Source: Vibrio vulnificus CMCP6
GTDB taxonomy: Bacteria > Pseudomonadota > Gammaproteobacteria > Enterobacterales > Vibrionaceae
Reading direction: 5' to 3'
Assembly: GCF_000039765.1 (NCBI RefSeq)
Contig: NC_004459.3
Location: 2,331,127-2,363,126 of the forward strand
Length of the DNA stretch: 32,000 bases
Shown here: positions 3,742 through 26,555 of the stretch, one piece after another
Numbering within the stretch: the first letter of the stretch is position 1
Layout of the letters: each line of letters opens with the position of its first letter
Notes under the pieces: generated by a model
What the model was told of the DNA's origin: nothing
Seen by the model: the letters and a program-made list of their open reading frames with translations, nothing else
The model's database searches: none
Made by a program: the position numbers and the translations under genes

Positions 3742-3746
3742 GAAGC

Positions 3747-4853: not shown

Positions 4854-4855
4854 AC

Positions 4856-5260
4856 GTGGATGCGAAAAAAGCCAACAAGGCAGTGGCACAATTTTACCAT
4901 GCGCTGGACAAGCAAACGGCAGAGAGCTTAACTGAGCAACAGAAGCGCGACATTGAACAAGCGGTGCAATCCATCGGCCTAGTGGCTCGGCATTCGCTCG
5001 ATGTTCGTAAGAGCTTGCCCTGGTTTGGCAAGCGCTACTATTTTGTTCTCCTTTGCGGTCGTGACCGCCGTGGACAAGTTCGAGCGGAAGAGTCGGCATT
5101 GGCTAACTTTTTTACGGTGACGTTTGTTGTCATCGCGTTGTTGACCTTGTTTGGCTTATCCGCCTTGGCGTTATACCTGCTTAAGTCAGCGTTAGGGATT
5201 GATATCTTCAAAGACTACTCGCTAGGAATATGGGACTGGTTTAAAGGTCTGATTCACTAG
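4856..5260 (+). CDS. Small membrane protein of unknown function
   Basis: 134 aa with a GTG start 2 nt after the preceding stop. A charged helical N-terminal half is followed by one clear transmembrane helix (FFTVTFVVIALLTLFGLSALALYLL). No family recognised. Confidence 0.5.
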   Translation: MDAKKANKAVAQFYHALDKQTAESLTEQQKRDIEQAVQSIGLVARHSLDVRKSLPWFGKRYYFVLLCGRDRRGQVRAEESALANFFTVTFVVIALLTLFGLSALALYLLKSALGIDIFKDYSLGIWDWFKGLIH

Positions 5261-5300
5261 TGTTGTCAGCGAGTTCATACTCAATACGAAAAGGTACGGA

Positions 5301-6779
5301 ATGAAACTTCGATTTTACCAGCAACTCTTATTGGCTTCGCTTATTAGCATGCCCGTTACCGCTTGCTATGCCAAAAAAGGCCAAGCGGAAAACGGTGCAA
5401 ACAAACCGGAGAATTCCGTTGTTGAGGGCGCGGATCCCGTTGAAGAGGGGATCGTGACGGTTTATCCAACGGAATTATCAGGGCCAATCAGTAATCCCGG
5501 AATGGGGGTCGAAACGTTTCATAACAATTGGGGCGCGACTCTAAGCACGGCACAATATCCAGAAGCGGGTATTGATTACTATCGTTTTTATTGGAATGAG
5601 TTAGAGCCTGTTGAAGGGCAATATGCTTTTGATAAGCTCGATCGAATTTTGGCGGAAAATCGTCAGGAATCACCAGCGAAGATGATTGCGATACGTTTTA
5701 TGACCGCCGATGAGCCTTATACTGGCAGCAAAATCCCAAGCTGGTTGATCAATAAAGGGATCGCGGGCGACTGGAGTGAAGATGGTTCCACTTTCGTTCC
5801 GAGCCTTGAAGACAGCGTGTACATGAGTTACATGGCGAAGCTGTTGAACGCGTTTGGTAAGCGTTACGATGGCAATCCTAACCTCAGCCATGTTGATATC
5901 GGTATGGTTGGTTCTTGGGGCGAGTGGCATAACAGTAATTTTTCCAACCTAGCACCACTGCATCAGCGTTACAGTGATGCAACACTCAATCATATTGTGG
6001 ATTTGCACTTTCAAGCGTTTCCCAAAACCCCTAAAGTCATGCTTATCAGCGGTGAGAACAGCCTAAATTATGCGGTGAGTAAAGGGGCTGGGTGGCGCGC
6101 CGATTGTTGGGGAGATTGGCATCATTTCTCGACGACATGGAGTCATATGAAAGATGACTATCCATACCGTCTGCAGCAAGCCGAACAAAAAGACAGCCAG
6201 TTTAAAGAGGCATGGCAACACGGGCCCATAAGCTTAGAAACCTGCGGAACCATGCAGGAATGGCGAAGCGCGCAGGACTACACGTTAGAGGAAATCCAAG
6301 CAAGCTTAGATTGGGCCATTGCACAGCATGCTTCTTCGCTTAATCTTAAATCGAAACCGATCCCAGAGGAGTATCGCCCGCTGCTGGACAACGCGTTGAG
6401 CAAGTTAGGTTACCGATTGAGAATCAAAAGTTTGTCTCACCAGCAACAACTCAGTGCGGGCAGCACTTGGGTTATTGAAACCTTGTTCAGTAATGATGGC
6501 GTCGCACCGCCCTATATTCACCGTAACTTAGCGTATCGTCTACGTAACAGTGAAGGAGAAACCGTGTTTTCAGCGATATCTAAGTATGACGTGAATGAAT
6601 GGTTACCCGGAGAGCACGCGACAAGAACCAGCTTAACGTTGCCAGACGCTCTTACGCGAGGAGATTATGCTGTTGAAGTGGCATTGATTGATAGCCATGG
6701 TGAGCTACCGCTGAACTTGGCTAATGATGGCAAACAAGCCTCTGGTTGGTATCGACTTTCTCAGTTGAGCATTCAATAA
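5301..6779 (+). CDS. Lipoprotein, DUF4832-like putative glycoside hydrolase
   Basis: Lipobox SMPVTAC. The central region (GMVGSWGEWHNSNF, GAGWRADCWGDWHH) resembles the TIM-barrel-like DUF4832 families by my recollection. It is the last gene of the polysaccharide cluster. Confidence 0.55.
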   Translation: MKLRFYQQLLLASLISMPVTACYAKKGQAENGANKPENSVVEGADPVEEGIVTVYPTELSGPISNPGMGVETFHNNWGATLSTAQYPEAGIDYYRFYWNELEPVEGQYAFDKLDRILAENRQESPAKMIAIRFMTADEPYTGSKIPSWLINKGIAGDWSEDGSTFVPSLEDSVYMSYMAKLLNAFGKRYDGNPNLSHVDIGMVGSWGEWHNSNFSNLAPLHQRYSDATLNHIVDLHFQAFPKTPKVMLISGENSLNYAVSKGAGWRADCWGDWHHFSTTWSHMKDDYPYRLQQAEQKDSQFKEAWQHGPISLETCGTMQEWRSAQDYTLEEIQASLDWAIAQHASSLNLKSKPIPEEYRPLLDNALSKLGYRLRIKSLSHQQQLSAGSTWVIETLFSNDGVAPPYIHRNLAYRLRNSEGETVFSAISKYDVNEWLPGEHATRTSLTLPDALTRGDYAVEVALIDSHGELPLNLANDGKQASGWYRLSQLSIQ

Positions 6780-8566: not shown

Positions 8567-8578
8567 AAGGTGGCAAGG

Positions 8579-9892
8579 ATGGGTTCATTAACGCAAAAAC
8601 TGACGCTGCTCTTTTTCTCCACCTTGCTGGTGGTTGGGGTTGTCGCGCACTCTTTGCTTAACGTCTATGAAGAACAGAATAGCATCAGGCAAGAGATGGC
8701 GGTGATCAATCTTACTCAGTCAAACCTCGAACAATTGAGAAATCAGCTCTCTTTGTTTCTTCAGTACCAAGATGAGGAAAGCTACGATCAATTGTTTGTG
8801 GCACAACAGAAGTTATCAGAACACATTCAACAAACATCTGGCTTTCACCGCACCATGAGCAACTTGGAACGAATGTGCAAAACCTTTCAAGACTTGCTGA
8901 TTCACGAGCGCTCACTCGGCAACGCCAATTATGCGGCAAAAGAGCTTTTGCACTCACGATATAACATGATTGTGCTGTCAATGGACGAAGAGCTCTCATT
9001 TCTACAAAGAAATGTGTTGGAAAAACGGCTTGGGCAGTTAACCAATGTCATCGTTAAAAGCGGCATCTCACTGGTGTGTTTTACTCTGCTGGTCAGTGTT
9101 GTGACTTTCCTGATCCTGAAACGTTTTAAAAAAGGTTGTTCAGTATTGCAATCGGGATTCAACCAACTAAGTCACGGTGATTTAGAAAGCCGCATCAGTA
9201 GCAAAGGGATAGATGAAGAGTTTGTGGTGGTTGCAGATCGCTTTAATTCGATGAAAACCTCACTCAGGCAGATCACCGTGACCAGAGAACAACTCGAGTT
9301 GGAAGTGCTGCGTCAAACGGCTGAGTTAAGAGCACAAAAAGAACAGTTGGTTTATCTTTCCGAGCGTGACCCCTTAACGGGTTTGAAGAACCGACGGGCA
9401 TTTATGACCGCTTTAGAAGACGCAGCCATCAAAGCCAACCGAAGTGGGCTGAAAATGGCACTGTTGTTTATTGATCTCAATAAGTTTAAGGAAATTAACG
9501 ACACTTACGGACATGATGCTGGCGATGAAATACTGTGTCGCGTAGCAGAGCGAATGGTTGATTGTTTTAGGCATTCGGACATCTTGGGCCGGCTAGGGGG
9601 AGATGAGTTTGTCGTCTGTCTCGATTTGTTGACGAGCTATGACGGTGTGATAAGTAAAGCGGAGCAGTTTGCTGAACAAATGAGTGCGCCAATTCTCTTT
9701 CATGGCCACCACTTGCAAGTAACGCCGAGTATTGGTATCAGTTGTTATCCTGATCAGAGCAGTTCAATATTGGAGCTGGTAAAGCTGGCAGACGAAGACA
9801 TGTATCAGGCCAAAAACGCTAATGGTGACTTTGTTGTTAGCCGTTTTCTGGCACAAGCGCCTGATATGGCGTTACTTAAGGAGTTTAAATAA
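8579..9892 (+). CDS. Membrane-bound diguanylate cyclase: TM, periplasmic helical domain, TM, HAMP, coiled coil, GGDEF
   Basis: GGDEF at 9596-9610 with an RxxD I-site (RHSD, 9569-9580) five residues upstream. Two transmembrane helices and a HAMP-like segment are present. AAGGTGG lies upstream of ATG 8579, and the gene begins 13 nt after the binding-protein stop. Confidence 0.9.
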   Translation: MGSLTQKLTLLFFSTLLVVGVVAHSLLNVYEEQNSIRQEMAVINLTQSNLEQLRNQLSLFLQYQDEESYDQLFVAQQKLSEHIQQTSGFHRTMSNLERMCKTFQDLLIHERSLGNANYAAKELLHSRYNMIVLSMDEELSFLQRNVLEKRLGQLTNVIVKSGISLVCFTLLVSVVTFLILKRFKKGCSVLQSGFNQLSHGDLESRISSKGIDEEFVVVADRFNSMKTSLRQITVTREQLELEVLRQTAELRAQKEQLVYLSERDPLTGLKNRRAFMTALEDAAIKANRSGLKMALLFIDLNKFKEINDTYGHDAGDEILCRVAERMVDCFRHSDILGRLGGDEFVVCLDLLTSYDGVISKAEQFAEQMSAPILFHGHHLQVTPSIGISCYPDQSSSILELVKLADEDMYQAKNANGDFVVSRFLAQAPDMALLKEFK

Positions 9893-10436: not shown

Positions 10437-11141
10437 TTATTCTTCAATCTCACTTTGTACGCGGTTATCTCCCGTGCTAAAAGCGATAACCTGGCTAATT
10501 TCCGTGAGGCTGCGACCACTTTGCTGTTGCCAATGAGTAAAGGCCAGTGTTGCGGCTTCTAACGAACGCTTGGTTTCTTTTCCGCCTTCAATGATTTTAT
10601 AGCTGCGCAAGTACGCCTCTACATCCCCAGACAAAATAAAGGTATCGACGCCAAGCTGACGCAGGCTGTAAGGGCCGGTGTTACCACCGAGTCGACTGCC
10701 GTGCTTTTTCAAAAACGCCCAGAGTCCGGTGATCTCTTCTTTCGGCCAGTTCGCCACCATTTGGCCAAATGAGCCGTATTGCAACCCCACTTCGTGCATC
10801 ATTTGCGCATTCGCTTGAATGGATTTGACCTTGGCATGATGGCGAATAATGCGCGTATCCGCCGCTTTCAGATCCCACTGTTCATCAGAAAGCATCAACA
10901 AAGGCGCTACTTTAAAACCAAAGAAGACTTCTTCGAAATTTGGCCACTTGTTCCGCACGACTTTCCAAGATATGCCACTTTGGAAAATCTTCATACTGAA
11001 GGCAGATAACCAACGATCATCCGGAATAGCGGCAATTTGCGCTTGGGTGAGCGGTTTGGACAAAAGGGCTTCAAGCTTTGCTTCGCCCCCTTTGCGCTCG
11101 GCGGCTCGTTGATAGATGTCGTCAAATTTTTCTAGATTCAC
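10437..11141 (-). CDS. DNA-3-methyladenine glycosylase I (Tag) family protein
   Basis: The core QSGISWKVVRNKWPNFEEVFFGF...IIRHHAKVKSIQANA matches the Tag/Adenine_glyco pattern (GLSW..., IIR.R.KI...NA). At 234 aa it is longer than E. coli Tag, and I did not see the Zn-ligand Cys/His set. Confidence 0.6.
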   Translation of the reverse strand: MNLEKFDDIYQRAAERKGGEAKLEALLSKPLTQAQIAAIPDDRWLSAFSMKIFQSGISWKVVRNKWPNFEEVFFGFKVAPLLMLSDEQWDLKAADTRIIRHHAKVKSIQANAQMMHEVGLQYGSFGQMVANWPKEEITGLWAFLKKHGSRLGGNTGPYSLRQLGVDTFILSGDVEAYLRSYKIIEGGKETKRSLEAATLAFTHWQQQSGRSLTEISQVIAFSTGDNRVQSEIEE

Positions 11142-11269
11142 AATCTCAATCTCCCTTTCTATGCGCTTTTACCGAGGACTAACAAAGCCAAACGATATGT
11201 TGACTAACGAATGACATTTTAAAAGCAAGAGTCAGTAAAGTCTGCGACAAAACATGAGGTTATAAAACT

Positions 11270-11443
11270 ATGAAAAAAACATGGATTGCGCTAGGTCTAT
11301 GCGCATTTTTATCTGGCTGCCAATTAACCAGCGTCGAAGGGGAGTACAAAGACGTGGAAGTGAAACTGAAGAACAAGAGTTCCAGCCACGAGGAAAGCCA
11401 ATCATTTTGTCCTCCGGGACAGGCAAAGAAAGGGCGATGCTAA
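11270..11443 (+). CDS. Small lipoprotein (57 aa), not in the supplied ORF track
   Basis: My own translation is MKKTWIALGLCAFLSGCQLTSVEGEYKDVEVKLKNKSSSHEESQSFCPPGQAKKGRC*. It has a canonical lipobox LSGC and a Cys-containing basic C-terminus. Confidence 0.55.
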   Translation: MKKTWIALGLCAFLSGCQLTSVEGEYKDVEVKLKNKSSSHEESQSFCPPGQAKKGRC

Positions 11444-11466
11444 TTGGTTGGTGCACGATGAAAAAC

Positions 11467-11493
11467 AATCAGCCAGCATGAGGCTGGCTGATT
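11467..11493 (-). terminator. Intrinsic terminator of the Hsp70-like operon
   Basis: Perfect 11-bp stem AATCAGCCAGC/GCTGGCTGATT with a 5-nt loop. On the minus strand it is followed by GTTTTTC. It lies 22 nt downstream of the stop at 11515. Confidence 0.65.
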
Positions 11494-11514
11494 AGGAGGT
11501 TCGCTAATGACGGT

Positions 11515-14322
11515 TTACTGAGTCACCAGACGCAACCCGCTCGGGAGAGCATCACCAAACACGCGTTTAGACTCGCTTTCAGAAAGCTCTTTGATCTCTT
11601 CGACCAAGCTTACCCACGCTTCCGGTACTCGGCTTTGCTTCAGTTTGGTGAGCACTTGTTGGCGGAAATCTTCAGAGATATCAAAGAGACGATCACCCGT
11701 TTTACGACAAATCATCACCGCAGCAAAGGCGATCATCGGTTCTTTCTGCCAGTTCTGATCCAATAGTTTCGGTAACCATTGTTCCGCTTGCTCGCGTGGA
11801 ATGACACGATGTTGGCTTGCGTAGAGCGGTGTACGAGAGGCCAATCGCCCAATCGCCCACCAGTGCGCTTGCTCAAATTGGTTTTGATTCAGAGCTTTGC
11901 TCAAAAACCAACTGGTTAGCAAAACTTTGTCTTCCACTTCCAGATGCTCTAGAGACGCGGCCAGTCGAACCATGGCTTCGTAGCCCATATCTTGCGCGGC
12001 TTTTGCCGTTTGTGGATTTTTCATCGCGCCTGGGTGTAAATACTTGGCAATGTCGGCAAGTAGCGTTTCTTGTTGCTCTTGGTTTAAGCCTCCAGCTATA
12101 CGACGCCAGAATACCCACCAATCGGTCCAACCTTGATGATTTTGGAACTGGATACCTTGTTGGTAGAGCCCCCAAACTTGCTCAATACGCCAAGAATCGG
12201 TTGCATCGCCAAAGCCCGGGCGAAGAGAAAAACCTGCTAAACGTAGCCAGTTTTTTTCGTGTTGTTCAGAACGGCGGCGACGTTTTCGTCCTTGTGCAAA
12301 GGCATCAAACAAGTGGCGTAGGGTTGTGAAGTCCCATTCATCGCGCTTGCCAAGTTTGCGTTCAAGTTCTTTGGCTAACAGTTTGATCTCATTGCCATCG
12401 CCACTTTTTTTGTTGCCACTATAGAGGCGGGTAATCAGTTCTTTACACTCATTCAATCGTGGGTGAAGTGTGGCATTTTCTTGTTCTTCCGCTTTTTTGT
12501 TGCGAACTTCAAACTCCAGAGCCCAACGTTTATCTTCTTCTTCGACACTGACGCACTCCATTTTCAGGGTGCCGACTTCGGTCAATTGGCATGCAAGTTG
12601 AACTTCCACACGCTCTTTTTGATTGGCTTCTAATTCTGCGCCTTCCCCTTGCAATGTAACGATATACGGGGGAAGTGGGGTGAAGATATCAGGGTCGATA
12701 TCCGCCATGACGCCGTTTTGAATCGCTACGTGGTGGGACAAAGCATCGTGCGTTGACGTGAGTAGGTTAAAGCGTACGGGTTCGCCAAGGGTGAGCGAGA
12801 AACGTCGTCCAGTGAGACGAATTTCTTGTCCTTCTTCGGTGCCTTTTGCAAGCAAACAGAGCGCTTTACCCATTTTGTTTTTTTCTTGCAGATGCAAAAA
12901 GTAAGACCGAGCAGAACCGCCACCGATTTTGAGTTGTGCCCCTCGACGGGCTTTGGCAAACGCGACAGCGCCTAATGCCACAGACCAATCTGGATGCGGG
13001 TTATCAAGGACGGTGACCGGTGCGCCGCGCCAGCGACCGAGCAACTCGGTCATCCGCGCAGTGACGAGGTCACTGTTAAACACGCCGCCGTTCAACAACA
13101 GACCTACCGGAATGGCGGGTTGATCACTTTCTGATTGTCCTAACGCAGCGTGAGAGACTTGTTGGTGCTGAGATAAAAACTCGGCCACGTGTTTGCTCAC
13201 CGCGGGATCGGCGACATAAGGCAAACCAAATTCGACCACGGCGCTGCGGCGTTTACCCGGCGTTTGAGTAAAATCCGAAAGTGGGAAGAAGCCGTCGAGG
13301 GCGATTTGATGAACTTCTTGTTTATTCAACGAGATGCTTTTGGTGCCACCAAGCAGTTTGGAACCACTGCCCAACATGGTGATCTTCACTTCTTCCGGCG
13401 CTGTACTTGAGAGGAGTTGCTCTTTGGCTTTGCGTGTTTGCTGAATCAGTTTGGTGAGGCTGGCCGCATTGAGTTTTTTGCTTTGATTAAAGCGCTGCTC
13501 CGCTAAATGCGCGAGGGCCAAATCTAGGTTATCACCACCGAGCATGAGGTGTTCACCAACCCCGATGCGATCCAAGGCGAGGGCGTCTTGGTTAAATTTT
13601 GCTTCAATCAAGCTTAAGTCAGTGGTACCGCCGCCGACATCACACACCAAAATCAGCGGGATTTCTTTTAATAACTCTGCGGCACTGTGCTGGTGGCGAG
13701 CATACCAGTCGTAACAAACCGCTTGAGGCTCTTCGAGCAGAAGCACTTGGCTTAAGCCTGCCAGTTGAGCGGCTTCGAGGGTCAGCTTACGTGCAGTTTC
13801 ATCAAACGAAGCCGGTACGGTGACCACCACCTCTTGATCTTCGAGCAGATTGCCCGGGTGGCGATGATTCCATGCTTGGCGAATGTGATTAAGGTAACTG
13901 GCACTGGCAATAACAGGGGAAACCTTCTCAACATCGCCAACCCCAGCCCACGGCAGTATGTCTGAATGGCGATCAACCGCTTGGTGAGACAGCCAGCTCT
14001 TAGCGCTTGAAACCTGACGCCCTTCTACCTTTGCGCCCAGTTCACGCGCCCATTCACCAATGATCACATTAGCAATGTCGCCAGCCACAGTTTGGTTTTC
14101 CCACGGTAAGGTGAGATCCGCCGGGGCGATTTGCCCGTTGGCAGGGTGGTAGCGGAAAGAGGGCAGTAGTGGCTTACGAACCACTTCACCGGGGCCAATA
14201 AGCTGGTCAATATCGAAAAGGGAGACGTTGGATTGTTGTAAGTTCTCGGTCAGTTCACAAAACGCAACCACCGTGTTGGTGGTGCCTAAGTCAATGCCGA
14301 CAAGATAGCGAGGAGATGCCAT
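11515..14322 (-). CDS. Non-canonical Hsp70-family ATPase, long form (935 aa): actin-fold NBD, beta-rich domain, Trp-rich helical C-terminal domain
   Basis: NBD motifs are LVGIDLGTTNTVVAF, VVTVPASFDETARKLTLEAAQLAG, LVCDVGGGTTDLSLIE, MLGGDNLDLALA and LLNGGVFNS. I found no recognisable DnaK substrate-binding/lid sequence or EEVD tail. An RKRRRR patch precedes a ~330-aa helical extension. Confidence 0.9.
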   Translation of the reverse strand: MASPRYLVGIDLGTTNTVVAFCELTENLQQSNVSLFDIDQLIGPGEVVRKPLLPSFRYHPANGQIAPADLTLPWENQTVAGDIANVIIGEWARELGAKVEGRQVSSAKSWLSHQAVDRHSDILPWAGVGDVEKVSPVIASASYLNHIRQAWNHRHPGNLLEDQEVVVTVPASFDETARKLTLEAAQLAGLSQVLLLEEPQAVCYDWYARHQHSAAELLKEIPLILVCDVGGGTTDLSLIEAKFNQDALALDRIGVGEHLMLGGDNLDLALAHLAEQRFNQSKKLNAASLTKLIQQTRKAKEQLLSSTAPEEVKITMLGSGSKLLGGTKSISLNKQEVHQIALDGFFPLSDFTQTPGKRRSAVVEFGLPYVADPAVSKHVAEFLSQHQQVSHAALGQSESDQPAIPVGLLLNGGVFNSDLVTARMTELLGRWRGAPVTVLDNPHPDWSVALGAVAFAKARRGAQLKIGGGSARSYFLHLQEKNKMGKALCLLAKGTEEGQEIRLTGRRFSLTLGEPVRFNLLTSTHDALSHHVAIQNGVMADIDPDIFTPLPPYIVTLQGEGAELEANQKERVEVQLACQLTEVGTLKMECVSVEEEDKRWALEFEVRNKKAEEQENATLHPRLNECKELITRLYSGNKKSGDGNEIKLLAKELERKLGKRDEWDFTTLRHLFDAFAQGRKRRRRSEQHEKNWLRLAGFSLRPGFGDATDSWRIEQVWGLYQQGIQFQNHQGWTDWWVFWRRIAGGLNQEQQETLLADIAKYLHPGAMKNPQTAKAAQDMGYEAMVRLAASLEHLEVEDKVLLTSWFLSKALNQNQFEQAHWWAIGRLASRTPLYASQHRVIPREQAEQWLPKLLDQNWQKEPMIAFAAVMICRKTGDRLFDISEDFRQQVLTKLKQSRVPEAWVSLVEEIKELSESESKRVFGDALPSGLRLVTQ

Positions 14323-14340
14323 GACAAACCCTTGATTGAT

Positions 14341-14370
14341 TTAAAAACGGCACCCTTCGGATGCCGTTTG
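14341..14370 (-). terminator. Terminator-like hairpin between the two Hsp70-like genes (possible attenuator)
   Basis: The minus-strand RNA reads AAACGGCAUCC-GAA-GGGUGCCGUUU followed by UUAAAUC, giving 5 consecutive U from the 3' arm. It lies 11 nt after the upstream stop and about 18 nt before the ATG at 14322. Confidence 0.5.
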
Positions 14371-14380
14371 CTTTGTTCGA

Positions 14381-16294
14381 TTATTCTGCCAGAGAGGCAT
14401 CGTCACGCACGTCGAATTCCACGTGCCATTTTTGACCGTTATCCGCCGCAATCGCTTCTAAATACAGCGTGCCAAGTTCAGTCACGCGTGAGGCCAATGT
14501 CACCGGCACCACTTCGCCTTCACGGCGACCCTCTGAAACCGGTAACGTCACTTGAATCTCTGGTAATTCTTCAAGTTCATCTGGGCCCCAATGGTCCAAA
14601 TGTGTTCCTGTAAGATCGTCACGACGAACCGTTGAGCCAAAGAATTGGAAATTCACTGGCTGGCCGATGATCAAACCAAACTGCTGACTTGGTACATCGA
14701 CGCTGGTGCCTTCTTCCATGCCAAACGGCGCCACACACAGTGCTTCCATTGGCGGTGCCATACCTGGAATGGCAGGCATTGCGCTCTCGATACCGACGTA
14801 ATAGCTTGAAGCAATACCACCGCGAATACGCACACCTTGGCCACGACGCACTGCGCCATAGTAAGCCGCGCCGCTCGCCACCGCGAGATCCAAATCGACG
14901 CCGGTGAGTCGTTTTGCCATCTCTGCATCAGCGTCAAGCAACCATTCGTTGATGGTTTCTTCTAAGCGTTCTGCTAAGAGAGCTGACTTCAGCACACCAC
15001 CATTGAACAAAATCGCGGTAGGTTTGATGAAATCGACAGAAGCTTGTTGAGCGCCAGGCATACCCGGCATTCCGCCAACAAACGGGTTGTAATCTTGTGC
15101 AGGTACCGCTTCACCGTTGGCATTGGCTTGCTTCGACAAGAAAGCCGCAATGTGGCGAGTGATGCCTGCGTCTTGTGCATAAGGCAAGCCCATCTGGGTC
15201 AGTGCACCGCGGTTACGTTGTACTGGGTGTTCGGTGATAGCGACTTTAGGGAAAAAGCCATCGACGAGCATTTGCTGCACTTCTTGCTGCGTGAGTTCGG
15301 TTTTCAGCGTAGCGCCGAGCAATTTAGAACCGCGGCTTGGCACGACAATCGGTACCGATTGCAGTTCTGCATCATTGAGCAGCGCTTCTTTCGCGTCGCG
15401 GCAAGCGTGCGTCATGGCTTGTACTTGCCAAGGTTGCAGCTCTTTGCCTTCCTGAGCCAGCTTCATCTTCAAACTGTAGGCGAGGGCAAGATCCATGTTG
15501 TCACCGCCCAGCAGAATGTGTTCACCGACAGCGATGCGTTTGAGGGTCAGATTACCTTCTTCTTCGGTCACTTCCACCAAAGAAAGGTCAGTAGTACCAC
15601 CGCCGATGTCCACCACCAGCACGATATCACCCACAGTGACTTCATCGCGCCATTTGTCATTGCTGTTGTCGATCCAGTTGTAAAGCGCGGCTTGAGGCTC
15701 TTCCAACAAGGTAAGATGGACAAAACCGACATTGCGCGCCGCTTCTGCCGTCAGATCGCGCGCCGCAGGATCAAACGATGCCGGCACTGTGATGGTCACG
15801 TCTTGCTCTGATAGCGGATGGTTTGGCTGTGCGTGATCCCACGCCTGCTTAAGATGCTCTAAATAAAGCTCGGTTGCGCGCAGTGGTGAGACTTTTTCAA
15901 TCTCTTCTGGGCTGCCAGCTGGTAGAAACGCATCGCGGCGATTCACGCCACCATGGCAAAGCCAAGATTTCGCACTGGCTACCAAACGCAAAGGCGTTTT
16001 ACCACCCAAATTACGTGCGATTGCGCCGACAAGGGCAGTTGGCTCAGTCGTCCATGGCAACACGCGTGACGCAGGGTTCATTTCATGCTCATGCGGCTGG
16101 TAAAGAAACGAACCAAGTTGGTTACGAGACTCAACGGTGCCAGGCGCCGTCAATTGTGGAATGGCCATCACTTGTACGCGAGCTTGCTCATCCTGGGTAT
16201 CCATGAATGACATAACACAGTGCGTGGTACCTAAGTCGATACCAACGCTGAATTTTGCCACTTGCTCGGTTGCGGGTGTCATCATCGTTTCCAT
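14381..16294 (-). CDS. Non-canonical Hsp70-family ATPase, short form (637 aa)
   Basis: FSVGIDLGTTHCVMSF, VTITVPASFDPAARDLTAEAARNVGF, LVVDIGGGTTDLSLVEV, LLGGDNMDLALA and ILFNGGVLKS. The C-terminal beta-rich domain is paralogous to that of the 935-aa protein. The start overlaps the upstream stop (TAATG). Confidence 0.9.
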   Translation of the reverse strand: METMMTPATEQVAKFSVGIDLGTTHCVMSFMDTQDEQARVQVMAIPQLTAPGTVESRNQLGSFLYQPHEHEMNPASRVLPWTTEPTALVGAIARNLGGKTPLRLVASAKSWLCHGGVNRRDAFLPAGSPEEIEKVSPLRATELYLEHLKQAWDHAQPNHPLSEQDVTITVPASFDPAARDLTAEAARNVGFVHLTLLEEPQAALYNWIDNSNDKWRDEVTVGDIVLVVDIGGGTTDLSLVEVTEEEGNLTLKRIAVGEHILLGGDNMDLALAYSLKMKLAQEGKELQPWQVQAMTHACRDAKEALLNDAELQSVPIVVPSRGSKLLGATLKTELTQQEVQQMLVDGFFPKVAITEHPVQRNRGALTQMGLPYAQDAGITRHIAAFLSKQANANGEAVPAQDYNPFVGGMPGMPGAQQASVDFIKPTAILFNGGVLKSALLAERLEETINEWLLDADAEMAKRLTGVDLDLAVASGAAYYGAVRRGQGVRIRGGIASSYYVGIESAMPAIPGMAPPMEALCVAPFGMEEGTSVDVPSQQFGLIIGQPVNFQFFGSTVRRDDLTGTHLDHWGPDELEELPEIQVTLPVSEGRREGEVVPVTLASRVTELGTLYLEAIAADNGQKWHVEFDVRDDASLAE

Positions 16295-16926
16295 TACAGC
16301 TCAACCTCAGCGGGTGCGATGATCGAAGCGTCGTAGTTTTCCGCTAGTTTCGGTAGCGTCATTGCAGAAGCTTTCCAACCTTTGTGGATTAAGGTGCCGT
16401 TAAATGGCGCATTACCAGTTACGTTTCCGACTAAACGAATCGCTTGAGGGTTAAAGCCTTCTTCGACCACAATGCGGCTCTCTTCGTCTTCGTTACGGAT
16501 CGCTTCAAGCGTTACGTACTCTTTTAGGACTTTTTGGCCACCGCTATGAATAACACGCGCTGCTGCGCCCACTTCTTCATCAGAGAATGAGGTGAGATCT
16601 TCTTGTAGGAAGTCAATCAAGCGAGCTTCTTGTTGCATGATAGAAAGCAGTTGCATCGCAGAATCGGTGGATGCGGTGGCAAGCTTAGATTCCACTTCAA
16701 CCACTTTTTCAATCACTTTCTCAACTTCAACAACTTTCTCTACTTCGACGATTTTTTCGACCGGTTTTTCGACTTCAACGATTTTTTCTACAGGCTTCTC
16801 AACCACTTTCTCGATCACTTTGGATTTACGAGAAACCGCCACGAGTAGTAATAAAACGCTCGATGCCGCTAGACCTGCGTGAAGCATATCGAACGTTTGA
16901 GGAATAAGGTTTAAATCAATGTTCAT
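16294..16926 (-). CDS. Membrane-anchored DUF2760 domain protein
   Basis: It has an N-terminal transmembrane helix (HAGLAASSVLLLLVAVS) and a VEK-repeat linker. The C-terminal AMQLLSIMQQEARLIDFLQEDLTSFSDEEVGAAARVIH...RLVGNVTGNAPFNGTLIHKGWKA matches my recollection of the DUF2760 family. Confidence 0.8.
   Translation of the reverse strand: MNIDLNLIPQTFDMLHAGLAASSVLLLLVAVSRKSKVIEKVVEKPVEKIVEVEKPVEKIVEVEKVVEVEKVIEKVVEVESKLATASTDSAMQLLSIMQQEARLIDFLQEDLTSFSDEEVGAAARVIHSGGQKVLKEYVTLEAIRNEDEESRIVVEEGFNPQAIRLVGNVTGNAPFNGTLIHKGWKASAMTLPKLAENYDASIIAPAEVEL
16690..16818 (-). repeat. In-frame V-E-K periodic repeat encoding the linker of the DUF2760 protein
   Basis: aa 37-79 read VIEKVVEKPVEKIVEVEKPVEKIVEVEKVVEVEKVIEKVVEVE. 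The 10-aa unit VEKPVEKIVE occurs twice in tandem (16744-16803). The two copies differ at 6 of 30 nt, and every difference is synonymous. Confidence 0.85.
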
Positions 16927-17218
16927 GCTAATTTTTCTCTATTCGATTGATTTAAAGGTGCATAGATTGGCTCGCGATAGACGACATAGACGGGCGAATT
17001 TGCGATTTGCACCTAGTTTAGACGTAAAAATGGTGACGAATATTAGCATATTCAAGTTGGTAGGCTGTAATAAAAGCGCTTTTAGGGCAGAATTCTGAGT
17101 TTGTTTGCTGAAAAAAACGACATAACAGTTTGTCATTCTGTTAAATGGCTTGATGTTTGTGTGGTTATCGTGTTTATTGGCATTGGATTCGGTTTGTTGG
17201 ATTTAAATGGATTTGTAA

Positions 17219-18766
17219 GTGGGTCAACCAGTTTCTCTTTTGTCTTATCGATGGTTTAGAAGGCACTCGGCGTCGATTTTTGCCTTTGTCGCAACGTTAT
17301 TTGCAACCTGTGTATTTTTGCTCATTGCAAGTCATATCCAGCAGCGCTATACCCATACCATGTTTAATAATTTGGCTGAGCGACAAGCCGAAGCCCTCAA
17401 AGAGTTCGTTAAAAACGATTTGGATTATATCGGCTCTGGAGCCAATTTCTTCTATTCTGTCGCGCCTGAGGATTGGGACCGCTTTGAAGTGTTTGCCCGC
17501 CACACCGTTTCATCTTCACAAAGTTTGATTGGTTTGCAGTGGATGCAAAAGGTGGCGCCTGAGCAACTGGAACAGCACATTGCCAATGTGCGTGAAACTT
17601 TCCCCGATTTTTCGGTTTTTACCGTCCCTAAAGATCAACCCAAAACTTACGGCTACGTGTTTTCCGATGGCAGGGCCATTTACATTGCGAGCGATATTTA
17701 CCCTCGAACGCCGAAAAACATTGAGTTGCTGGGTTTCTATTCTTCTCGCCTGCGTTTTGATTTGATTTTGGACGACATCTTTAGCACAGGCCGAGCCAAC
17801 ATTTCCGATAAAGTGCGTCTATTACAAGACGGCTACGACCAATCATTAGATAAGACCGGCTTGTTGGTTTATCACCCCGTTTTTGACCAGCGTAGAGAGT
17901 CACTGCTTGGTGTGGTGGTTGGTGTGATTCGCAGTACCGTTTATTTCGAAGAGCTGGTGATGAAAACGGCGACTGAACTCAACATGGTGGTCAAAGTGAC
18001 GGACTTAGGGTTTGATGCGGAGGACGATCCCATTTTGTATCAGAGCCCCAATTGGTCAAGCATTGAGGGCGAGATCGTCGTGAAGCCGGTCACCTTACCA
18101 AACCGTTCATGGCGCATCGAATTTAAACTCGAGAAAGGGCTGTCGAAATGGGACCGACTGGTTTTAATCGGCATTGCGGTGATTGGCGTGGTGATCGCCA
18201 CCTTGGTTGCGCATATTGTCAACTTGCAGACGCGTGAGAAACAACGCTTGAGTTATATGCTCAATGAAAAAACCAAAGAGTTGCAATTTATGGTGGATCA
18301 CGATCCACTGACGCACACACTTAACCGCCGTGCTTTTCGTCATGATTTGACTCAGATGCTAGAAAAGCAGGCGGCGTTTAGTCTGATTGGCTTTGATATT
18401 GACCACTTTAAGCAAATCAATGACCGCTATGGCCATTTAGGTGGCGACCAAGTGTTGATTGATGTTGCCGATGTGATTGGCACTGTGTTGCAAGAGGGGG
18501 ATCGTTTCTATCGTTTTGGTGGCGATGAGTTTGGTATTCTCTCTTCTGTTACAGAGCGTTCTGAATTGGAGTGTTACTTAGAAGCCATCCGTGATCGTAT
18601 AGAGAAAACGGCCTGTTATTACCAAGATACCGAGATTCATTGCACCCTGAGTATTGGGGCTGCCGTCCACTGCGACGAAGAATTGGAGGATTTGGTGCAA
18701 AAAATGGATGTGCAGCTCTATCGAAGTAAAGATAAGGGACGAAACTGCGTGACAATTGCAGCCTAA
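17219..18766 (+). CDS. CHASE-domain sensor diguanylate cyclase (TM, CHASE, TM, GGDEF)
   Basis: The periplasmic region with SLIGLQWMQKV...LLVYHPVF is CHASE-like. The second transmembrane helix is LVLIGIAVIGVVIATLVAHIV. GGDEF is at 18518-18532. The I-site position reads QEGD, so there is no RxxD. The GTG start is uncertain. Confidence 0.85.
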   Translation: MGQPVSLLSYRWFRRHSASIFAFVATLFATCVFLLIASHIQQRYTHTMFNNLAERQAEALKEFVKNDLDYIGSGANFFYSVAPEDWDRFEVFARHTVSSSQSLIGLQWMQKVAPEQLEQHIANVRETFPDFSVFTVPKDQPKTYGYVFSDGRAIYIASDIYPRTPKNIELLGFYSSRLRFDLILDDIFSTGRANISDKVRLLQDGYDQSLDKTGLLVYHPVFDQRRESLLGVVVGVIRSTVYFEELVMKTATELNMVVKVTDLGFDAEDDPILYQSPNWSSIEGEIVVKPVTLPNRSWRIEFKLEKGLSKWDRLVLIGIAVIGVVIATLVAHIVNLQTREKQRLSYMLNEKTKELQFMVDHDPLTHTLNRRAFRHDLTQMLEKQAAFSLIGFDIDHFKQINDRYGHLGGDQVLIDVADVIGTVLQEGDRFYRFGGDEFGILSSVTERSELECYLEAIRDRIEKTACYYQDTEIHCTLSIGAAVHCDEELEDLVQKMDVQLYRSKDKGRNCVTIAA

Positions 18767-21845: not shown

Positions 21846-22766
21846 TTAACGATTGTCCTGTGGTATCGCTCTAACCAAACGCACGTAATACTGTGTCCAG
21901 TCCGATAGGCTTCCTAATGTATATAAAGTGTACATGTATGAAACATGTAAGCGATTGTCACTTGTTGTGCCTAGATTCGGCACGTTTTTGAACGAGACGC
22001 TGTACCCTGCTTGAGTGGCAAAAAGTTGGTTCAGTGGGTAGTAGTTGTCGCTATAGTGATTGCTCAGTCTCTCCAGCCCCAACTCTTTATCTCCCCAGTG
22101 AAACGCATTTGAAAACTTGTTGCGACTTGTTGTGGCTGCAACCCACTCTGGCGCATTTGCTTTGAGCCAAGGAACCAGTTCTTTATAAACGTAATCTGAG
22201 GTTTCTTGTGACCATTCACCATTTAGAAGCTTATGGCTGCTTTCCAACCACTCAACGACCTTTTCGTCTACCTCCGGGTTGGACTGACGTTTTTTCTCCA
22301 GTGCAACCAGGTTGTCTTGGTGTCGTTGGTAGAGAATATCGAACTTCTCTTTGTACGGAGCAACCGCTTGATATAACTGCTCCAGTGCTTCGGTCGTTTG
22401 TGACAGCTTAAAGAACTCAGGATAAGTCCCATAGCGGCAGCTCTGATCGGTAATGGTAATCAGCTCTTGGGTATGAGGCAGTCGCCATGTGAGTGCAGCG
22501 TCACTCTCGGCTTGATTGAAGGTTTCAATGAGTTCGACAAGATTCCCTCGTTTTTCCAAAATAGCGTCACCTGCGCACTGTTCACCTTGCTGACCCATTG
22601 GACACATCATCCATTGAAGGTTGGTTCTGTTGTCGTTGATCACCCAATAGTTTGTGCCGTGGTAATCGATCGTGGCTTTTTCAAAACGCCCCTCTTCAGG
22701 AAGGCATTGCGCATAGAGCGGAGTTGAGAGTACCGCTGCTAATGAGATGAGAAAAGTCGTTTTCAT
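21846..22766 (-). CDS. Secreted protein with an N-terminal DUF1566 (Lcl C-terminal-like) motif set
   Basis: Signal peptide ...TPLYA|QC. NRTNLQWMMCPMGQ and TWRLPHTQELITI (WRLP at 22476-22487) match the DUF1566 signature (tGLmWq ... WRLPt..EL). The C-terminal ~190 aa are unassigned. Confidence 0.6.
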   Translation of the reverse strand: MKTTFLISLAAVLSTPLYAQCLPEEGRFEKATIDYHGTNYWVINDNRTNLQWMMCPMGQQGEQCAGDAILEKRGNLVELIETFNQAESDAALTWRLPHTQELITITDQSCRYGTYPEFFKLSQTTEALEQLYQAVAPYKEKFDILYQRHQDNLVALEKKRQSNPEVDEKVVEWLESSHKLLNGEWSQETSDYVYKELVPWLKANAPEWVAATTSRNKFSNAFHWGDKELGLERLSNHYSDNYYPLNQLFATQAGYSVSFKNVPNLGTTSDNRLHVSYMYTLYTLGSLSDWTQYYVRLVRAIPQDNR

Positions 22767-22776
22767 ATGTGCTTCC

Positions 22777-25680
22777 TTATTCCTGATTCACTTTTAAACC
22801 ATCGCTCACCAGCATCACCTGGTGAGGCACCTCTTTGCCTTCCAATTGCGTTCGTGCGTTCCAACTGGTTGGGAAAAGTAGGTTTGCTAGGGTTTTAACA
22901 TCAGGGTTTTCTTGCTTCATCCACAGCATGTTGCCGTCAATATTTGGGAAGAAATCATCATCAAAGTTCAACTGAGGCTTGCCTTTCAAAGTCATAATAT
23001 TGAGCGTTTCTTCGTAGGTCGGCAGCCTCCAATCGGTGATGCCGCAAAGTTTGGCTTCGTTGGCGCGTTGAACAAGTTGGTTTACCGTACAGTGACGTGC
23101 TTTGTCTTGGCGATAAACCTCACCGTTGGTCGCGACACAAAATCCGTTGTATTGGTCGTCTGTCACCGCCAGGTTGTCACCATGCAGATATCGGTTATCG
23201 ATGCTGTACCAGTGACGAATGCGATCACCTTCCACCATCTCGCTATTTGGCACGGCCCACGTTCGGCCAGTTTTGGTTTCAACTGCGCAGCTGTGAGGGG
23301 TTGCAACATACGGAAGATCTTGTCGACTCAAACGTTCACCTTGCGCATCCACTTTTAGGAAAGAAAGCGATTGGTAACCATCGATGTTGGAGTTTCGTGC
23401 ATAACCACTCATTGGGTCACAGCTAAAATCCGAATCAAAGAGATGAGGATTGGTTAGGCCAGCATCGCTAACTCGAACATTGAACTGAGCGCTCGGCGTA
23501 CCATCGTGCGCGATCTGGAAATAGTAGCGAGTAAACGGCGTTAAACCATTTAATGTCACTCTGTGCGTTGCGCTCTTAGTCTGATTGGTCGCTTCACTCA
23601 GTTGACTAAACGGCTTGGTGTCCCAGTAGACGGTATAGCCACTGGTTCCTTGCGGCAGCCATTCTAATGTGAGCCAATCGTCCCCACGTCCACGAAGTGC
23701 AATGCCACGAATTTGGTCTTCAGCAAATTCGGTGCTGCAAATCGACTCCAATCCATTCACTGGCTCGGCGGGTAGCCAACTGTTGCCAGCGTTGATTGCC
23801 GTGTTTAAGTCGGCAGCGATCTGGTTGTCCGCAGCAAATTGGCTAAGGTGAGTGAAAGCTTGCGCACTCCACGTCAACAGCGTGTTGATGGTGGCCTCGT
23901 TATCTTCCATATGATGGGCGACATCGGCGATGTTTTTCAGCAGTTGGATGACTTGAAACGGCTCTGGCAGAATGTTGCTTTTACTGTACATACGGTATTG
24001 AGCGTTGTAGTCGAGATCGAGCAACTGAGCAGCGGTGCGGAAAAAGTCCGAGGCATTGTCGATGGCCGGTAGTGCCTGATTTTCTGCTGATGCCATTTGC
24101 ATCGCCACAATGCTACTCATCAACTGCACCATTTCCGGCGTATGCTTGGCAAACAGTTCATCGATCGCGGTCTGTTTGACGGGTTTGGCGTATTGGCCGC
24201 CACCGTGATGCATCAAGCCACTGCGTTCAGCCAACAGGGCGTGTGCGTTGTTTTCAAATGAGACTTTTAAACGCGGAAACTCTTCGGCAGTGACGATGCC
24301 ATCTTGGTTCTTGTCGATATCAGCTCTCGCCAGTTCACAGAAGGCGCCCAAGTAGGAACGCATCTCGACACCGCTGTCTGGATCAAACGCAATCACGGTC
24401 AGCAAATCTTGCATATTGTCGGTCGGATGGGCGCTTGGCTTGGTCAGATCGGCGTTTTTATCGTAGTAAACATACACGCCGTTCGCCGTGGGCTGACAAG
24501 TTTCAAAGCCTTGCGCGGTATCGCGAAGCGTTACGCGGAACTCAAATTGACGATTTGCCCCTTCAATAGCCGTCGACGATTTTTCTTCACCCACAGGGGT
24601 AATTGGTACCAGCAATGGGCGTTTGGGTTTGAGTGGGTTGTCGTAATGGCTGTTTGCTAAAGGATCGTTAGGATAAGAACCCATTTGTAGCGAAATCTGC
24701 GGGTTCTTCATTCCTGAAACCGTTTCGCCACGGAGTACCAAGGTGCGGGTTGGGTAAGAGTTATCTAATACTTCGCGCAGTACATTGCTTTGCTTGACCG
24801 CGTGCATCTCGATCCATTTGTCTTTAATACGCTTCTGCCAACCGTCGGGTAGTGCCACTTGATGGGTTTGTGCCATCGCTTGGTAAGTATCGCTCACTCT
24901 ATCCAACCAAGGCGTCTCTTCCTCGGTTGTGGCAGCGGCCATGTTTTCATTCTTAAGCAGGGCATCAATAAAGGCAGCGGTCGAGAGATTGAGCGAGGTG
25001 AGTTCGATTTGTTCTTCACGATCAAAAGGATCGGCGATCGCATGCAGCAACGCGGCGATGGCCATGATTCTCTCTCGCCCATGTTCGTTCATCAGTTCAA
25101 GTGCACTTTGTTCGCCACTTGGATCGAGTGCAACAAACAACGAGTTGGTTTGTGAGAAAGTCAGTGGCAGCCATTCATCATGGGTAATGAATTTATCGTT
25201 GTTTTTATCTGCGGCGAGTAGCGGCAACTTGGTACCAATGGCATTGCGATAAAGCAACACTTCGCGAGTTTCTGATGACGCTTGATCTTCCGTTTGTGCT
25301 TTTTCAGCAGTGCGCGCGTTGGCCTCTTGTTCACGTGGGGAGATCACGCTGACTGCCTCAATCGTCATCGGGAGGCCCTCGCTGAGAGTGGCAGGATCCA
25401 CCTCTAAAAGATAGCGAGGTTGACGCTCTCCCGCGTGTATTTTGATCGCTGAACGCGCCACGACCTCTTCACCCACCAGCAGCCTCACTTCCGTTTTGAC
25501 GGTTTGATCGACCGTGACTTTCACTGGCTGAGACTCCGTGACAAAGCCGGTTAACGTTACTTTAGTTGGGGTTGAAGGGGTTGCTGGACTGGTCGCAGAG
25601 CCGCCACCGTCGCCACCACCACACGCGGTCAATAGACCCGCAATGGTTGAGGCAACCAAACTCTTGGCAAATAAGCGCAT
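22777..25680 (-). CDS. Large surface/periplasmic lipoprotein (967 aa): Gly/Pro/Thr linker, two EF-hand-like loops, FN3-like module, C-terminal DUF1566 domain
   Basis: Lipobox LLTAC followed by GGGDGGGSATSPATPSTPT. The EF-hand-like loops are DKNNDKFITHDE (25174-25209) and DKNQDGIVTAEE (24280-24315). An FN3-like segment WLTLEWLPQGTSGYTVYWDT...LTPFTRYYFQI lies at about 23461-23718. The C-terminal motif is DWRLPTYEETLNIM (WRLP at 23020-23031). Confidence 0.7.
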   Translation of the reverse strand: MRLFAKSLVASTIAGLLTACGGGDGGGSATSPATPSTPTKVTLTGFVTESQPVKVTVDQTVKTEVRLLVGEEVVARSAIKIHAGERQPRYLLEVDPATLSEGLPMTIEAVSVISPREQEANARTAEKAQTEDQASSETREVLLYRNAIGTKLPLLAADKNNDKFITHDEWLPLTFSQTNSLFVALDPSGEQSALELMNEHGRERIMAIAALLHAIADPFDREEQIELTSLNLSTAAFIDALLKNENMAAATTEEETPWLDRVSDTYQAMAQTHQVALPDGWQKRIKDKWIEMHAVKQSNVLREVLDNSYPTRTLVLRGETVSGMKNPQISLQMGSYPNDPLANSHYDNPLKPKRPLLVPITPVGEEKSSTAIEGANRQFEFRVTLRDTAQGFETCQPTANGVYVYYDKNADLTKPSAHPTDNMQDLLTVIAFDPDSGVEMRSYLGAFCELARADIDKNQDGIVTAEEFPRLKVSFENNAHALLAERSGLMHHGGGQYAKPVKQTAIDELFAKHTPEMVQLMSSIVAMQMASAENQALPAIDNASDFFRTAAQLLDLDYNAQYRMYSKSNILPEPFQVIQLLKNIADVAHHMEDNEATINTLLTWSAQAFTHLSQFAADNQIAADLNTAINAGNSWLPAEPVNGLESICSTEFAEDQIRGIALRGRGDDWLTLEWLPQGTSGYTVYWDTKPFSQLSEATNQTKSATHRVTLNGLTPFTRYYFQIAHDGTPSAQFNVRVSDAGLTNPHLFDSDFSCDPMSGYARNSNIDGYQSLSFLKVDAQGERLSRQDLPYVATPHSCAVETKTGRTWAVPNSEMVEGDRIRHWYSIDNRYLHGDNLAVTDDQYNGFCVATNGEVYRQDKARHCTVNQLVQRANEAKLCGITDWRLPTYEETLNIMTLKGKPQLNFDDDFFPNIDGNMLWMKQENPDVKTLANLLFPTSWNARTQLEGKEVPHQVMLVSDGLKVNQE

Positions 25681-26108: not shown

Positions 26109-26540
26109 GTGAAGCCAGACATTGTCGTCCTCATCGCTTTGCTGCTACTGCTTGCGATGGTGGTGTTAAGTGACGTGCTAAAGCGAAAGATTTACAACGC
26201 TAATCTCGCCGTATTGGTCATCGTATCAACGTATTATCGCCATCAACTACCCGATGCAATGTGGTTGGATGCGACATTGTATGCACTGCTGGCGTTGTTG
26301 ATTGGCATGCTGCTCTGGCAACGCAGGTTGCTTGGGGCAGGGGATGTGAAGCTAGCCGTGATATGTGTCTGGATGGTTTTCCCAAACTGGGGTGAGCTGA
26401 TTTTACTGAGTGCGCTTGGCGCTGGGGTATTGGCGATATGGCAGTTAGCGCGTCAGCGTTTGGCCATGTCAAACACCCATCAAGGGACGATTCCGCTTGG
26501 TGTCTCCATTTCCGCGTCGACCGTTTACCTTCTTTTCTAA
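26109..26540 (+). CDS. tadV: Prepilin peptidase, A24 family, TadV/CpaA type (no methyltransferase domain)
   Basis: 143 aa and polytopic. The conserved Asp motifs are LSDVLKRKIYN and GAGDVKL. It lies immediately after flp. Confidence 0.8.
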   Translation: MKPDIVVLIALLLLLAMVVLSDVLKRKIYNANLAVLVIVSTYYRHQLPDAMWLDATLYALLALLIGMLLWQRRLLGAGDVKLAVICVWMVFPNWGELILLSALGAGVLAIWQLARQRLAMSNTHQGTIPLGVSISASTVYLLF

Positions 26541-26555
26541 TTTGGATTTTTCATC

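Follow-up and report, generated by a model that had tools for sequence, protein, structure and literature searches.

A conserved three-gene operon of Vibrio vulnificus encodes a predicted membrane-anchored DUF2760 protein and two atypical Hsp70-like ATPases

We analysed an operon of three genes in Vibrio vulnificus CMCP6, located at 11515-16926 on the minus strand of a 32-kb stretch of genomic DNA (the window), which encodes a protein with a DUF2760 domain and two Hsp70-like ATPases. The genes are referred to as g1, g2 and g3. An earlier note made from the same DNA had described three co-directional minus-strand genes behind a 292-bp upstream gap and ahead of a strong terminator, the first two of them translationally coupled. 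All of this was recovered: the three open reading frames (ORFs) lie at the coordinates given there (16294-16926, 14381-16294 and 11515-14322), the gap 5' of g1 measures 292 bp, and both the stop/start overlap and the 12-bp-stem terminator are present in the sequence. The operon is composed as follows.

16294-16926, minus strand: g1, a 210-aa predicted membrane-anchored DUF2760 protein
14381-16294, minus strand: g2, a 637-aa lidless Hsp70-like ATPase
11515-14322, minus strand: g3, a 935-aa Hsp70-like ATPase ending in DUF3731
16292-16296, minus strand: TAATG stop/start overlap of g1 and g2, read directly in the sequence and taken as translational coupling
11466-11494, minus strand: intrinsic terminator after g3 that closes the operon, with a 12-bp stem containing 6 GC pairs, followed by TTTTT

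The V. cholerae orthologues of the trio are VC1375-VC1374-VC1373, annotated 'DnaK-related protein', and g1 shows 99% identity to V. vulnificus proteins. An Rfam scan of 11000-17600 of the window gave no credible match. Pfam already lists both DUFs as families, and routine annotation calls the genes 'Hsp70 family protein'. DUF2760 and DUF3731 are not named in any paper of the literature searched, nor is this operon described there; nothing relevant was found on VC1386 either.

Relatives of g1 were collected by a DUF2760 scan covering one genome per GTDB species, which found more than 530 of them. The best 80 loci were taken and derive from Vibrio, Aliivibrio, Photobacterium, Psychromonas, Motiliproteus, Oxalobacteraceae, Methylococcales, Competibacteraceae and a Lentisphaeria metagenome-assembled genome (MAG). 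Among the 75 loci with at least 4.9 kb of downstream sequence, 74 showed the order DUF2760, g2-type gene (about 606-666 aa) and g3-type gene (about 920-980 aa) on one strand, and an overlap of 1 or 4 nt between g1 and g2 was found in 76 of 78 loci. By exact-protein look-up the analysis was extended to nine contexts from more distant lineages. The full trio is present in eight of these nine lineages, including Nitrospirota, Desulfobacterota, Chloroflexota, Rhodothermota and Binatia (Ca. Magnetoovum, a Desulfobacterota genome, Caldilinea, Rhodocaloribacter, a Binatia MAG and three more metagenomic contigs), while Calditrichia carries DUF2760 and the g2-type gene only. The range of the operon extends from Vibrio and Burkholderia to Nitrospirota and Chloroflexota, and the pathogens that carry it include V. 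cholerae (VC1373-1375), V. vulnificus, V. parahaemolyticus and the Burkholderia cepacia complex. All-against-all clustering of the flank ORFs from 84 loci in 17 lineage groups revealed no fourth recurrent family. The earlier note had raised the possibility that comparative genomics would break up the three genes; from the 74 loci and the distant phyla, the trio is a discrete co-conserved three-gene unit.

Shortened forms of the module were found as well. Counting the Calditrichia context, three loci carry a duo variant consisting of DUF2760 and a g2-type gene only; these are located at 9001-11486 of L083, at 9689-12387 of L074 (Methylococcales) and at 8722-11240 of L167 (Thiodictyon plasmid pTs485). 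Since these variants keep exactly DUF2760 and the g2-type gene, the coupled g1-g2 pair looks like the core of the module. On one metagenomic contig (L170, 7001-14111) a 460-aa amidohydrolase gene is located between the g2-type and the g3-type gene.

Residues 87-209 of g1 (nt 16300-16668) match DUF2760 (PF10816) in Pfam with an E-value of 1.8e-53; the score is 180 bits against a cut-off of 25, and positions 2-124 of the 124 in the profile are covered. At 50% identity the domain falls into about 1,780 clusters. The single membrane-spanning helix described in the earlier note is predicted at residues 14-32 (nt 16831-16887; 19-residue Kyte-Doolittle mean 2.03), and 200 of 262 g1 homologues carry an N-terminal hydrophobic segment. 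The helix is followed by SRKSK, from which, applying the positive-inside rule, we infer that the linker and the DUF2760 domain sit in the cytoplasm. The linker between helix and domain consists of degenerate VEKx units encoded by 12-nt tandem repeats at 16696-16821. Lengths of 194, 200, 204, 206 and 210 aa among the Vibrio homologues of g1 suggest variation in the number of VEKx repeats. Within DUF2760 the invariant residues are grouped in LQxEGRLxDF, VGAAxRxxH and GNVxGxPPFxGxLxHxGW, and g1 ends in APAEVEL, of which PAEVE[LVI] is nearly invariant and lies 0-2 residues from the end in the homologues. An AlphaFold2 model of the domain (predicted local distance difference test score, pLDDT, 95; predicted template modelling score, pTM, 0.78; 39-row alignment) is built of three helices and a small sheet of four strands, with a well-ordered extension at the C-terminus. 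Comparison of this model with the PDB by Foldseek yielded no relative (best E 0.35), a profile search of PDB sequences with DUF2760 gave no match, and g1 contains no HPD motif.

Both g2 and g3 match the Pfam HSP70 family in their nucleotide-binding domain (NBD) at 68-70 bits. In g2 the match covers only the NBD part (E 8.6e-19; NBD at about residues 1-470), and in g3 it likewise falls on the NBD (E 1.2e-19; about residues 1-455). The motifs GIDLGTT, SAKSW, EEPQA, D[VI]GGGTTDLS, LGGDN.D (LGGDN.DLALA) and NGGV are present, and the phosphate-binding and catalytic motifs align to those of DnaK, which bears out the earlier description of both proteins as keeping the actin-fold motifs. Both thereby carry the phosphate-1, phosphate-2 and adenosine motifs that characterize the NBD of the Hsp70 superfamily (PF00012/ASKHA), and in 13 diverse orthologues of g3 from beta- and gammaproteobacteria the catalytic motifs show no variation. 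Since these motifs are intact and invariant, g2 and g3 should both hydrolyse ATP. The best-scoring NCBIfam models were HscA and DnaK, with 76 bits for g2 and 92 bits for g3 against equivalog cut-offs of 620-822, and no dedicated HscC model was among the NCBIfam matches of the two proteins. The possibility named in the earlier note, that the ATPases are orthologues of HscA, HscC or DnaK, does not apply: judged from scores this far under the cut-offs, g2 and g3 are orthologues of none of the three. The interdomain linker of both is a conserved G[VL][RK]I[RG]GG, replacing the hydrophobic DVLLLD of DnaK.

Behind the NBD, g2 contains a highly conserved C-terminal beta module (residues 471-637, nt 14384-14884) that includes the conserved ESAMPAIPG..PP..ALC.APFGMEEG, and the protein ends straight after this module without a helical lid. 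A module resembling the beta part of the Hsp70 substrate-binding domain (SBD) is located at about residues 470-605 of g3. The C-terminal modules of g2 and g3 cross-match at 42-55 bits and are therefore paralogous, as had been noted before. The lid is replaced in g3 by a linker plus an ARM/HEAT-like solenoid, which is about 250-300 aa long. The whole profile of DUF3731 (PF12531, 'DNA-K related protein'; positions 1-248 of 248) is matched by residues 685-932 (nt 11527-12270), with E 4e-98 and a score of 328.6 bits where the cut-off is 25; PF12531 and PF00012 were found together in all 120 listed g3 homologues. The RKRRRR patch and the Trp-rich helical C-terminus of the earlier description were located precisely: the patch occupies residues 679-684 (nt 12271-12288) and is invariant in orthologues, with RRRR-S-x2-HE-x2-W as the invariant pattern at this site, and 13 Trp residues fall within 681-935.

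In an AlphaFold2 model of g3 residues 455-935 (pTM 0.62; 29-row alignment) an all-alpha repeat domain comes after the beta module. When this model was compared with the PDB by Foldseek, SBDs of Hsp70 proteins made up most of the top 50 matches (probability 0.77-1.0, E 3e-3 to 5e-2), including DnaK (4b9q and 4r5g), BiP (5e84), HscA (1u00) and Kar2 (3h0x). Several of the others are ARM/HEAT-type repeats: Spiral2 (8y9r), importin-alpha (1q1s) and a designed peptide-binding repeat (7ue2). A profile of the g3 C-terminus had no match among PDB sequences. The SBD matches of the g3 model, none of which reaches E 1e-3, are suggestive and make a diverged SBD-beta without a lid the most likely identity of the beta module; as modelled, DUF3731 is an ARM/HEAT-like solenoid.

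The function of Hsp70 proteins is usually explained by a triad of J-protein, Hsp70 and exchange factor. As the earlier note had stated, the window holds no J-protein or GrpE: no J-domain or GrpE-like ORF was detected by phmmer (E<=10) or by Pfam scans, which took the 26 ORFs judged to be genes among 34 ORFs of at least 120 aa, and none is co-conserved in the flanks. No GrpE was found at 85 loci. At four of these 85 a J-protein of the PF12339 'DNAJ_related' family (~205 aa, with a C-terminal J-domain PF00226 containing HPD) is encoded within 10 kb upstream. In a Competibacteraceae locus (L060, 2844-3458) it lies ~650 nt upstream of the trio on the same strand, after a YfbK-like vWA gene, and in three Photobacterium loci it lies 3-6 kb upstream (L062, 297-890; L065, 173-799; L079, 5956-6573, here with unrelated genes between it and the trio). 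When the search was reversed, 0 of 80 metagenomic loci centred on DNAJ_related contained DUF2760 or an Hsp70-like gene within 10 kb, and none of the three records bearing DNAJ_related in the plasmid collection is among the 11 replicons bearing DUF2760. We therefore rejected DNAJ_related as a dedicated J-partner and kept it as a weak lead. The rule cited in the earlier note, that canonical Hsp70 cycles need a J-protein and a nucleotide exchange factor, does not settle the matter at this locus: since HscA and HscC function without GrpE, the absence of an exchange factor gene is not in itself anomalous, and a missing J-gene in the operon does not imply independence from J-proteins.

We also assessed the genomic surroundings of the trio. 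In Vibrio the neighbours on the g1 side are shared, with CHASE-GGDEF, RNase T-like exonuclease and TerB genes common to 21-28 of 31 loci, while the g3 side varies. The best-matching loci include those of 29 named species or strains of Vibrio, and the identity of g1 across the genus is 77-90%. Of 72,556 plasmid records 11 contain DUF2760, most of these being chromids or megaplasmids; of 50,697 phage records none does. In PADLOC-DB 2.0 no match was obtained for g1, and g2 and g3 gave a local match of ~90 residues to PDC-M61B (E about 1e-6); no PADLOC system model was matched by the trio. No McrB, DUF2357 or HEPN domain is present in the window, the operon holds no other effector gene, and no such family recurs in the flanks of 84 loci. 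Most of the evidence points to the trio in Vibrio being a core gene set and not a typical defence island; a role in defence is possible but unlikely for the Vibrio trio. The earlier statement that nothing distinguishes between the candidate roles does not hold up, since Vibrio synteny, rarity on plasmids and absence from phages disfavour a defence island and the promoter evidence points to a stress- or quorum-regulated physiological role. Two elements within and upstream of the operon are relevant to its expression.

17028-17056, minus strand: promoter-like element CTTGAA-N15-CACCATTT of sigma-32 type, conserved upstream of g1; a candidate promoter
14343-14369, minus strand: intra-operon GC-rich hairpin with a U-run, 11 nt after the g2 stop; -17.9 kcal/mol, z -3.5

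Alignment of the g1 upstream regions of seven Vibrio species revealed one conserved block, (C)CTTGAATATGCTAnTATnCGCCCCnATTT, the position and sequence of which are kept across Vibrio and Aliivibrio. The sigma-32 consensus has been reported as CTTGAA(A)-N13-17-CCCCAT(NT) (PMC3168786, PMC4263515). The element has 12 of 14 positions in common with CTTGAAA/CCCCATNT, a score equalled or exceeded in 0.6% of random 300-nt windows; a score of 11 or more is reached in about 22 of the 31 Vibrio loci. The block also holds the palindrome GAATAT-N4-ATATTC. Since its halves covary between species (GAATGT..ACATTC), it could be a transcription-factor operator, for a repressor or an activator, instead of or besides a sigma-32 promoter. 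HapR has been shown in V. cholerae to bind between VC1375 and VC1376 and to activate the promoter of VC1375, both in vivo and in vitro (PMC10328515). A search of the V. metoecus locus for the published HapR site of V. cholerae, a 22-mer, gave no match when up to 3 mismatches were allowed. VC1373-1375 were recovered as an operon repressed in biofilms (PMC9201469), and VC1374 mRNA was lower in a vc1639 sensor-kinase mutant (PMC5636140). Equivalents of the g2-g3 hairpin with compensatory changes are present in 38 of 74 loci, nearly all from Vibrionaceae (Vibrio, Photobacterium). At most other loci, including nearly all of the betaproteobacterial ones, g2 and g3 overlap or abut without a hairpin. 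The hairpin is possibly a partial terminator, an attenuator or an mRNA-stabilising element, and its distribution suggests a lineage-specific tuning of g3 dosage.

The explanation we favour, with the scales evenly balanced, is that the trio forms a dedicated, atypical machine of Hsp70 type that acts at the inner membrane, on its cytoplasmic side. The N-terminal helix of g1 would hold the protein in the membrane and present the cytoplasmic DUF2760 domain on the flexible VEKx-repeat linker. DUF2760 would act as the dedicated partner of the g2-type ATPase, docking or regulating g2 and so localising it, a role comparable to that of the membrane-anchored J-proteins DjlA and DjlC, though with an unrelated fold. 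As active ATPases, g2 and g3 would each clamp and release a polypeptide segment by means of a lidless, diverged SBD-beta, and the solenoid of g3 together with its Arg patch may provide a second binding platform, with a client, anionic lipid or the acidic linker or tail of g1 as its ligand. Stress and cell density would control expression through the sigma-32-like promoter and through HapR, which activates the V. cholerae orthologue. A dedicated membrane-tethered two-ATPase machine had been proposed in the earlier note; the co-conserved unit and the predicted anchor support this much of it, whereas independence from J-proteins is not established by the missing J-gene. Only tentatively do we go further and consider the trio a third kind of bacterial Hsp70 machine working without J-protein or GrpE, in which DUF2760 would represent a new class of membrane-anchored co-chaperone (ATPase activator and/or exchange factor), with g2 and g3 forming an obligate heterodimer similar to Hsp70-Hsp110 that remodels proteins at the inner membrane. 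What makes the operon worth pursuing is that it is ancient and combines two lidless Hsp70 paralogues, catalytically intact by motif, with a predicted membrane-anchored protein but no co-conserved J-protein or GrpE. Its function, once worked out, would show if a co-factor other than a J-protein can drive Hsp70 ATPases, would assign roles to two Pfam DUFs, and could reveal a membrane-proximal pathway of proteostasis or signalling linked to heat shock and quorum sensing.

Several observations weigh against the favoured explanation. J-proteins and GrpE encoded elsewhere in the genome could serve g2 and g3. The likeness of the beta module to an SBD is structural only: every Foldseek E-value is above 1e-3, the g3 model is of moderate quality (pLDDT 76.8), a profile of the g2 beta module had no match among PDB sequences, and an HHalign comparison with the SBD of E. 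coli DnaK was negative. The earlier claim that neither protein resembles the DnaK SBD is right at the level of sequence but probably not at the level of fold. The sigma-32 assignment is a match to a consensus only, and a weak sigma-70 promoter or an operator palindrome can be read from the same block; in vitro transcription of VC1375 was carried out with housekeeping RNA polymerase (PMC10328515). Finally, the module also occurs in two surroundings that look mobile or defence-like. A full trio (L166, 8752-14161) is present on the 110-kb conjugative plasmid pCC829_3 of Bradyrhizobium barranii, where trb conjugation genes and a MarR regulator lie immediately upstream of it, so the module can travel horizontally, and the duo on Thiodictyon pTs485 lies among genes annotated as anti-phage (DUF1156, DUF3780, PLD-like, TIR, VapC).

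It is fairly unlikely, in our estimate, that g2 and g3, as specialised Hsp70s, depend on J-proteins from other loci in the genome (DnaJ, CbpA, DjlA, PF12339) and possibly on GrpE, with DUF2760 as a mere anchor or client. The specialised Hsp70s HscA and HscC do use J-proteins (textbook knowledge), and the HPD-intact protein with PF12339 and PF00226 that precedes the trio in the Competibacteraceae locus and in the three Photobacterium loci would fit such a dependence. However, DNAJ_related was seen near just four of the 85 loci, the reverse search and the comparison of replicons found no association, and the G[VL][RK]I[RG]GG linker is not the DVLLLD through which J-domains act. We assign a lower probability still to DUF2760 being an obligate substrate or scaffold in the style of HscA-IscU, where the PAEVE[LVI] tail or another conserved loop would be clamped by the SBD-beta-like domains or by the ARM-like solenoid and the ATPases would remodel DUF2760 or membrane cargo. 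Near invariance of the tail and its position at the C-terminus speak for this, as do the extreme conservation of the g2 beta module, which suggests one fixed ligand instead of promiscuous binding, the Arg patch of g3, which complements the acidic tail, and the habit of ARM-type repeats of binding extended peptides. A freely available tail is less easily reconciled with the DUF2760 model, in which the C-terminal 20 residues have pLDDT values of 88-94 and are apparently packed on the domain.

The remaining two explanations concern quite different functions. An anti-phage or conflict system with a CnuD-like architecture of g3, in which the trio would sense or abort infection at the membrane, appears very unlikely. 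Pointing in its direction are CnuD itself, described as an Hsp70-like NBD/SBD with HEAT-like repeats (PMC11090510), the weak PADLOC match to PDC-M61B and the two plasmid occurrences, that is, the Thiodictyon duo among anti-phage-annotated genes and the full trio on the conjugative Bradyrhizobium plasmid. This is outweighed by the lack of McrB, DUF2357, HEPN or any other effector in the operon or co-conserved with it, by ATPase motifs that are intact in g2 and g3 but reported as degenerate in CnuD, by the conserved flanks and high g1 identity across Vibrio, and by the plasmid, phage and PADLOC system counts given above. That g2 and g3 are polymerising actin-like ATPases of the MreB or ParM type, brought to the membrane by g1 for a cytoskeletal role, is improbable in the extreme. 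The Pfam MreB_Mbl model does match weakly (26.7 bits for g2 and 29.7 bits for g3, cut-off 27), but HSP70 scores far higher on the same region, the best NCBIfam matches are HscA and DnaK, and both proteins probably carry an SBD-beta-like domain of Hsp70 type.

Compared with known systems, the machine we favour would be close in layout to HscC-DjlC/DjlB of E. coli and to DnaK-DjlA, where an Hsp70 is likewise recruited or regulated by a small inner-membrane co-factor with a single helix and a cytoplasmic domain. HscC furthermore has a reduced lid and does not use GrpE (PMC13580251, textbook knowledge). DjlA and DjlC, however, present a J-domain, whereas g1 presents DUF2760, with no HPD and no fold match in the PDB, and the trio differs from the HscC and DnaK systems in having two paralogous ATPases, both under the HscA and DnaK thresholds of NCBIfam. 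The HscA-HscB-IscU system shares with the trio a dedicated Hsp70 encoded in an operon with its partners, and HscA is the best-scoring NCBIfam model. That system has no nucleotide exchange factor and recognises one conserved motif of one client. The scores of 76-92 bits nevertheless compare with HscA cut-offs of 620-708, no HscB, IscU or Fe-S gene lies near the trio, and the lid of HscA is absent in g2 and replaced by the ARM-like solenoid in g3. By analogy with eukaryotic Hsp70-Hsp110, which also comprises two paralogous, unequal proteins of Hsp70 fold, the larger protein could serve as exchange factor for the smaller; the likeness is pure analogy, as Hsp110 has an extended lid where g3 has an ARM/HEAT solenoid. 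CnuD of the type III CoCoNuT system, compared by its description, has the domain order of g3 with an Hsp70-like NBD/SBD followed by HEAT-like repeats, but its partners are a McrB-like (NxD) GTPase, DUF2357 (McrC-N) and HEPN and its ATPase motifs are reported as degenerate, while the trio has none of these partners, intact motifs and DUF2760 instead (PMC11090510). Bacterial 'DnaK derivates' of unknown function exist according to a 2026 review (PMC13580251). The 'DnaK derivates' of Myxococcus and Anaeromyxobacter, and StkA, resemble g2 and g3 in combining an Hsp70 NBD with an altered or missing SBD and lid (PMC13580251, PMC8265645, PMC4319316). An operon of DUF2760, Hsp70 and Hsp70-DUF3731 is described in none of these three papers. 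The stk locus of M. xanthus was rejected as a homologue since StkA with the SCP2-like StkB and the PhaE-like StkC is a different system.

Further genes in the window were assigned by their domains. Diguanylate-cyclase genes with GGDEF domains are located near the operon at 8570-9892 and 17219-18766. The latter is a divergent upstream gene with a CHASE sensor domain that shares its intergenic region with g1, and we take it to correspond in position to V. cholerae VC1376. A cluster of tad/flp type for pilus formation lies at 26109-31751 (prepilin peptidase, RcpC/CpaB, secretin, a ParA/TadZ-like ATPase and a TadA-like T2SSE ATPase), and a glycosyltransferase cluster at 1541-6779 contains one GT2 gene, two GT4 genes and a GH42/DUF4832 protein. 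Two adjoining proteins with Lcl C-terminal domains are encoded at 21846-25680, the 967-aa one of which also has fn3 and EF-hand-like matches.

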